DNA of 64,000 nt from Escherichia coli (lineage in GTDB: Bacteria > Pseudomonadota > Gammaproteobacteria > Enterobacterales > Enterobacteriaceae). Location of the stretch: the NCBI RefSeq assembly GCF_022846255.1, contig NZ_AP025682.1, one strand, 5' to 3'. Shown piece by piece: positions 27,190 to 27,723 of this stretch. Every line of letters starts with the position of its first letter. Position 1 is the stretch's first letter. Position numbers and translations under genes: made by a program. Under the pieces are notes generated by a model. The model did no database searches, was not told the origin of the DNA, and saw only the letters and a program-made list of their open reading frames with translations.

Positions 27190-27723
27190 TCCTCACACCT
27201 CTTTTGTTATCAATAATTAAAGAGTGTGACAGAAATATGTCATTTTTCCGGGAACAGGTTCGCAAAATGGCTCGTTGAACGCCTGTTTTTCTATATTCTC
27301 CTTTAAAAACAGGCAAGTTTTGACGCAAACTATGCCTGATTAGCCCCGGCCTCGTTTACGCCGCTAATGATTACATCAGTAGCTATAAAGAAAATCAGCG
27401 GCGTTACCATTACCAATAAAAAAAGAATGTGAGACTAATAGAAATGGTTTTTAGCACATGTCTTTATCATTAAATTGCATAACGATTTAAATAGTCGAGT
27501 TGTGCATTCCTTTCCTTATTGTTTAACTTGTAAGCATGAGCCAAAAGTTCAGGAGGGAGGTAAATAAAATATGTTCCTCCCACCTTGAGGCGACCTCCCC
27601 TCCGCGATGATTTCAATAACATATTCTGTGTTGGCATATGAAATTTTGAGGATTACCCTACACTTATAGGAGTTACCTTACAGGGGTTCCTTCAATTTGT
27701 GTTGATTTACGCGAGATAACGCT

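Follow-up and report, generated by a model that had tools for sequence, protein, structure and literature searches.

The agp-cbpA interval

The window, i.e., the whole 64,000-nucleotide stretch of Escherichia coli DNA analyzed here (from contig NZ_AP025682.1), contains a gap of 534 bp between the agp start codon (position 27189, minus strand) and the cbpA start (position 27724, plus strand). In K-12 MG1655, the gene order is cbpM-cbpA-yccE-agp, and the distance between cbpA and agp is 1,809 bp. The original prediction that yccE, which lies between cbpA and agp in K-12, is missing from this place was correct on both counts, and no yccE gene is found at positions 27190 to 27723. The same prediction described the interval as ∼530 bp of noncoding DNA, which is right with respect to its length but not entirely with respect to its origin, as positions 27470 to 27564 represent the 3′ end of yccE. 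The features of the locus are as follows.

25948-27189, minus strand: agp (glucose-1-phosphatase), full length but with TAG as codon 21
27190-27469: agp upstream region and former yccE-agp spacer, collinear with K-12 (BLAST and MAFFT comparisons with six yccE-bearing alleles)
27470-27564, minus strand: yccE 3′ remnant of 95 nt (2 nt of codon 388, codons 389 to 418, and the TAA stop)
27470-27637, minus strand: chimeric 55-codon open reading frame (ORF) starting from a chance ATG at 27637 in cbpA upstream DNA, in frame with the yccE tail
27552-27560: GGAGGGAGG, which forms the left arm of the inverted repeat and represents yccE codons 390 to 392 (CTC CCT CCT, Leu-Pro-Pro) in reverse complement
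27562-27576, plus strand: truncated primary Fis site, GTTTAAAATATGTTC in K-12 (-108 to -94) and AAATAAAATATGTTC here
27564|27565: deletion junction, reading GGTAAA|TAAAAT, as defined by the alignment with K-12
27576-27584: right arm 1 of the inverted repeat, CCTCCCACC, directly downstream of C(-94) of the Fis site, in the variant form of the scar-bearing allele
27594-27603: right arm 2 of the inverted repeat, CCTCCCCTCC; K-12 reads CCTCCTCTCC, at -72 to -63 relative to cbpA P1
27654-27723, plus strand: cbpA core promoters and 5′ untranslated region, intact and identical to K-12

The agp gene carries a TAG codon in place of CAG at codon 21 (positions 27127 to 27129), i.e., a Q21* amber change within the signal peptide, and is otherwise intact; both K-12 and strain 2012C-4502 have a G at 27129. 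An exact 71-nt match carrying the amber base was found in none of the 5,367 complete E. coli genomes searched, so this change is either confined to this strain or due to a sequencing error.

The agp upstream region and former spacer (27190 to 27469), together with the adjoining yccE tail, are only ∼86 to 87% identical to any of the yccE-bearing alleles, with the small indels located in the spacer. The agp upstream region includes a perfect 10-bp inverted repeat, GCCTGTTTTT at 27281 to 27290 and AAAAACAGGC at 27305 to 27314, whose arms are largely conserved between alleles and whose loop is variable; possible roles are those of a regulatory site and of the former yccE terminator.

Deletion junction and yccE remnant

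Alignment with the K-12 agp-cbpA region yields two blocks, one ending at 27564 and the other beginning at 27565, with 1,259 bp of K-12 DNA (positions 1063939 to 1065197 of NC_000913) absent between them. Of yccE (1,257 bp; positions 4037 to 5293 of the retrieved K-12 locus), the first 1,162 bp are absent, as are the 97 bp that precede its start codon. The GC content of the absent DNA is 34%, compared to 52% in the neighboring DNA. The alignment reveals neither filler DNA nor overlapping microhomology at the junction; the tetranucleotide TAAA is found on either side of it, and both copies have been retained. Likewise, there is no microhomology or repeat signature at the junction that would point to a particular deletion mechanism. 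In a multiple alignment with six diverse yccE-bearing alleles (K-12, A65EC, 95JB1, 319, 23CRST010, and E21), the break falls at the identical base, and the bases at the junction are all accounted for by the yccE-bearing allele, except for a 3-bp indel, a 1-bp indel, and point changes.

The translated remnant, YLPPELLAHAYKLNNKERNAQLDYLNRYAI followed by the native stop codon, is identical to K-12 YccE in 27 of 30 residues. It matches the YccE family model of NCBIfam (NF007304) at profile positions 380 to 418 of 418 with an E value of 2e-14; the score of 53.4 bits is far under the 812-bit whole-protein cutoff of that model because only the tail of the protein is present. A full-length YccE ORF of ∼418 codons with the invariant Cys212 and His385 is absent from the locus, where only codons 389 to 418 are left. 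The remnant is found exactly where members of the YccE family are encoded, between cbpA and agp and on the agp strand. Thus, it shares with K-12 yccE (b1001) its chromosomal position, its strand, and the last 30 codons with the stop but differs from it in having lost 388 of 418 codons together with the 97 bp immediately 5′ of the gene, which makes it a pseudogene fragment rather than a gene. In all seven scar-bearing genomes whose annotation was inspected (2012C-4502, Ecol_867, ST1193, ABU 83972, DCE7, Nissle 1917, and ATCC 11775), PGAP marks this fragment as a pseudogene with a “missing N-terminus.”

These comparisons make it very probable that the agp-cbpA interval is the fixed scar of an old 1,259-bp deletion that took out yccE in the B2 lineage. 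The original prediction had listed a deletion scar as one of two options, and this option is supported by the flush junction seen against every yccE-bearing allele examined and by the in-frame 30-codon yccE tail. The ancestor of phylogroup B2 would have had yccE between cbpA and agp in a K-12-like arrangement, and a single 1,259-bp deletion would have removed the 97 bp 5′ of yccE along with its first 387 codons and one more base. What remained after such an event would be the last 30 yccE codons with the stop, the former spacer between yccE and agp, and, on the cbpA side, the 159 bp of regulatory DNA closest to the gene.

The join also created the chimeric 55-codon ORF (27637 to 27470, minus strand), whose predicted product begins with MPTQNMLLK. 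This frame is open, starts with ATG, and ends in the native stop codon, as would be expected of a new small gene made by the deletion. Such a gene is nevertheless highly improbable. The ATG is not preceded by a Shine-Dalgarno sequence (the upstream sequence is TAATCCTCAAAATTTCAT), and the 97 bp upstream of yccE, including an MxiE-box-like sequence, have been deleted. A promoter scan of positions 27100 to 27800 returned no sites, although its settings were too strict to detect even the known cbpA promoters P1 and P2, so that this result is uninformative with regard to promoters. In addition, PGAP treats the region of this ORF as a pseudogene, and each of the four variant B2 genomes inspected has a missense change within the frame. 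The chimeric ORF is accidental and probably not expressed.

Distribution of the scar

The 161 bp that span the junction were found, at an identity of at least 98.8%, in 1,126 of 5,426 complete E. coli genomes, and the full yccE interval, at 90.7 to 100% identity, was found in 4,240 genomes. This range of identities within E. coli makes the yccE interval unusually diverse for a chromosomal locus. The scar carriers SE15, 536, F11, ABU 83972, Nissle 1917, ST1193, and the type strain ATCC 11775 all belong to B2, and a search with 10 kb of the window against a collection that does not include the window's own strain returned B2 strains as the best matches, at 99.4% identity. The short interval is therefore found in ∼21% of complete genomes, which makes it not the arrangement of most strains but the normal arrangement of one whole major lineage, B2.

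Passages of PMC9769918 describe yccE as absent from B2 and from Shigella boydii and as fragmented in Shigella dysenteriae and Shigella sonnei. That B2 lacks yccE has been published before and is known in outline, and the window provides a B2-type example of it. The junction, the remnant, and the overlap with the Fis site and promoter P6 (see below) come from the present analysis and are not described in those passages; the exact junction and its overlap with these two elements of cbpA regulation may be new, as a modest detail. The overall importance of the scar is small. It can serve as a lineage marker, being a single junction that is present in about one-fifth of the sequenced E. coli genomes, essentially those of phylogroup B2.

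Deletion versus insertion

Deletions leave behind what is seen here: an in-frame tail that ends in its native stop codon, with the collinear yccE-agp spacer after it. This pattern favors deletion over insertion as the direction of the event. A further argument comes from Escherichia albertii, which has, in the corresponding place and with the same orientation, a YccE-like ORF (positions 1721 to 2389 of the retrieved locus, minus strand) with 23 to 27% identity to YccE. The two proteins share the invariant GDGYC and GNHY(D/N) motifs, and their alignment extends past the conserved His into the segment that matches the remnant, which indicates that the remnant tail belongs to the YccE protein. 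Given this homolog at the same locus, a yccE-type gene at the agp-cbpA site appears to be older than B2.

The opposite course of events, in which the short interval is ancestral and yccE was inserted later in the non-B2 lineages, taking its last 30 codons from resident DNA, would agree with several general features of the locus. B2 is an early-branching E. coli phylogroup; yccE is AT-rich (34% GC versus 52% in its neighbors), H-NS silenced, and without detectable homologs beyond Escherichia, which fits acquired DNA; and other Escherichia species carry different cargo at the agp-cbpA site. However, the inserted DNA would have had to contain a promoter as well as 388 codons and to join, in the correct reading frame, a preexisting 30-codon tail with a stop, and this tail by itself scores as a member of the YccE family in the NF007304 search. 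The alignment of the segment after the conserved His with the distant E. albertii homolog at the same locus also speaks against it, and the comparison with K-12 reveals no target site duplication or mobile-element end at the junction. Insertion into an ancestral short interval is thus extremely unlikely, and the scar is best read as a deletion.

The left flank of the junction (27191 to 27564) is 86 to 87% identical to each of the sampled yccE-bearing alleles, which are 92 to 99.7% identical among themselves. None of the six carries a left flank close to that of B2 (all are at or below 87% identity), and the immediate ancestor of the scar-bearing allele is unobserved.

An agp-cbpA distance of ∼4.6 kb, with no YccE homolog, was detected in Escherichia whittamii, Escherichia sp. 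E1V33, and two records labeled E. coli, E69 and SCPM-O-B-8794. The agp genes of these four genomes are only ∼90% identical to that of the window, so that they resemble cryptic-clade lineages. The insert of E69 (positions 1430 to 5906 of the retrieved locus), the only one that was annotated, encodes a transporter-like protein, a LysR regulator, a DAO-type FAD oxidoreductase, and a RidA-like protein. Because cryptic-clade Escherichia carry this unrelated 4.5-kb cassette, yccE need not have been present in the ancestor of the genus. Judging by these loci, the agp-cbpA site is prone to swapping across the genus.

The inverted repeat

The GC-rich tracts that had been noticed near positions 27550 to 27605 are present in that place. 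However, they do not represent a “small inverted-repeat element” that took the place of yccE: there is no foreign base at the junction, and the arms consist of preexisting yccE codons and cbpA upstream sequence. The left arm, GGAGGGAGG, is found in all the yccE-bearing alleles that were aligned. Both right arms belong to the regulatory DNA of cbpA, where they form pyrimidine tracts; the yccE-bearing alleles in the multiple alignment have CAGCACCCCACC or CAGCAACCCATC at right arm 1 and CCTCCTCTCC at right arm 2. The deletion would have brought GGAGGGAGG to within ∼15 nt of the pyrimidine tracts that were already located upstream of cbpA, placing the junction in the loop. An inserted element is further opposed by the single copy per genome, the lack of an Rfam family or terminator features, and the existence of variants that break the stem.

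The repeat is real, but its stability does not exceed chance; the predicted fold of positions 27540 to 27610 has a z-score of -1.3 on either strand. The best core, the 46 nt from 27545 to 27590, has folding energies of -15.9 and -15.3 kcal/mol and a z-score of about -2.5 relative to shuffled sequences. This value could be cited in favor of a functional structured element (an RNA or DNA hairpin or a protein-binding site) that was selected after the deletion, for example, as a substitute insulator upstream of cbpA. The changes that are found beside the junction in the scar-bearing allele only, CAGCAC to CCT and T to C in the second tract, have the same tendency: they lengthen the stem, and a hypothetical plain join would have -10.6 kcal/mol as opposed to -15.9 kcal/mol with these three changes. 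On the other hand, 5.2% (plus strand) and 9.2% (minus strand) of all 46-nt segments in the whole 64-kb window fold at least as well, so that the predicted structure is unexceptional. The exact 65-nt repeat region is kept in just 52 of 1,123 scar-bearing genomes. All four variants that were inspected (ABU 83972, Ecol_867, ST1193, and DCE7) carry a G27556T change in the center of the GGGAGG stem, which brings the energies down to -9.7 and -8.2 kcal/mol, about the average of the window. Nissle 1917 likewise has T at 27556, and the B2 strains MP1 and 2012C-4502 have G. The 65-nt query hits exactly one place per genome in these 1,123 genomes; a search of positions 26000 to 29500 against Rfam 15 with a permissive threshold gave no match on the repeat or the junction; and no intrinsic terminator (GC-rich stem plus T-run) is found on either strand in positions 27100 to 27800, including after the hairpin. 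The only Rfam match in the interval is a chance-level one to ar35 (27324 to 27451, E = 0.55), in the old yccE-agp spacer. A selected functional element is thus very unlikely. As far as can be told from the sequence, the hairpin is an accidental by-product of the join in decaying DNA, with no inserted element and no sign of use.

The cluster of changes next to the junction could be the result of a quasipalindrome template-switch mutation, which a 3-nt tract cannot establish. A short allele with the right arm of the yccE-bearing type, which would have put the deletion and the hairpin-extending change in order, was not seen among the 1,126 genomes.

As a short, GC-rich, intergenic inverted repeat, this structure is similar to REP/BIME and ERIC sequences and to MITEs, from which it differs in being present in a single copy, in having no family match, and in being built from the preexisting flanks with no extra DNA. 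The window does contain a true REP-type element (Rfam naRNA4, 81 bits, E = 4.5e-14), at 29013 to 29091 downstream of cbpM, with a weak match at 28930 to 28990. In strain E21, an IS1397-family insertion is found directly downstream of cbpM, and in strain 536, one lies somewhere within the matching 10-kb region.

The cbpA regulatory region

Regulation of cbpA, which encodes a nucleoid protein and cochaperone, has been studied in K-12 by Chintakayala et al. in 2013 (PMC3547828), and the sites mapped in the text and Figure S2 of that paper were converted here to window coordinates. In K-12, promoters P1 and P2 adjoin cbpA, and a strong promoter, P6, starts at -204, inside yccE; Fis acts only through P6 (PMC3547828). 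The Fis footprint covers 55 bp, from -145 to -90, and its primary site, G(-108)TTTAAAATATGTTC(-94), contains the -10 hexamer TAAAAT of promoter P4 (PMC3547828).

The first base retained in the window corresponds to -105, which puts the break between -106 and -105 and hence within the primary Fis site, 3 bp from its edge. In the scar-bearing allele, A stands in place of the key G(-108), and C(-94) is retained. The part of the footprint from -145 to -106, about 40 of the 55 bp, has been deleted, and so has the -35 region of P4, the -10 hexamer of which is still present at 27565 to 27570. P6 belongs to the deleted 1,259 bp. The -10 elements of P1 (TACCCT, 27654 to 27659) and P2 (TACACT, 27659 to 27664) and the equivalent of the P1 start (27666) are all in place. 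Overall, the region is identical to that of K-12 from -83 to the cbpA ATG, except for one indel and one T-to-C change, and differs from it in the alteration of -93 to -85 and the loss of everything upstream of -105.

With P6, the P4 -35 region, G(-108), and most of the Fis footprint lost and P1 and P2 kept, cbpA in B2 should be driven by P1 and P2 alone, with no need for insulation by Fis. In its described form, the K-12 model of Fis as an insulator between cbpA and the P6 promoter within yccE cannot hold for B2. The strains concerned include extraintestinal pathogens and Nissle 1917, and for those who work on CbpA or Fis, this is a prediction that can be tested cheaply. A more far-reaching proposal, that deletion of an AT-rich gene silenced by H-NS, along with P6 and the greater part of the Fis insulator, rewired the growth phase control of CbpA across B2 and made it independent of Fis, must be considered rather unlikely.

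The lost gene

According to passages of PMC9769918, yccE is silenced by H-NS and activated, in Shigella, by MxiE. Among 1.84 billion representative proteins, no YccE relatives were detected beyond Escherichia; the hits were a single full-length cluster from E. coli plus fragments of this gene. A scan of the contigs of a genome collection with K-12 YccE confirmed no relatives, likely because the type strain ATCC 11775, which we take to be the E. coli species representative in that collection, carries the scar and because the fast divergence of yccE defeats searches that rely on exact 8-residue words.

The invariant motifs of YccE are D209-G-Y-C212 and H385-Y-D387, and the deletion ends one codon past the His motif. 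These Cys and His motifs resemble the catalytic signature of OTU cysteine proteases, a similarity that should be treated as a lead only. A Pfam search with YccE found nothing, and sequence and profile searches of the PDB gave, at the Cys motif, only nonsignificant matches to OTUD3 and VCPIP1 (E = 0.5 to 1.6). AlphaFold models had unusably low pLDDT values of 41 for full-length K-12 YccE and 38 for the E. albertii domain. Within the literature collection searched, no paper names both yccE and OTU. The E. albertii protein EschOTU is a different, permuted protein.

In view of the activation by MxiE in Shigella and the OTU-like motif, the repeated loss of yccE may be of interest to effector biologists. 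Outside the scar lineage, yccE has been independently lost or broken in other genomes. In strain VL40, an IS1A copy is found between cbpA and agp (positions 4182 to 4879 of the retrieved locus), only the proximal 127 bp of the cbpA upstream DNA are kept, and agp is annotated with an internal stop. The gene is frameshifted in strains 319 and 23CRST010 and is represented by fragments in Escherichia sp. MOD1-EC7003.
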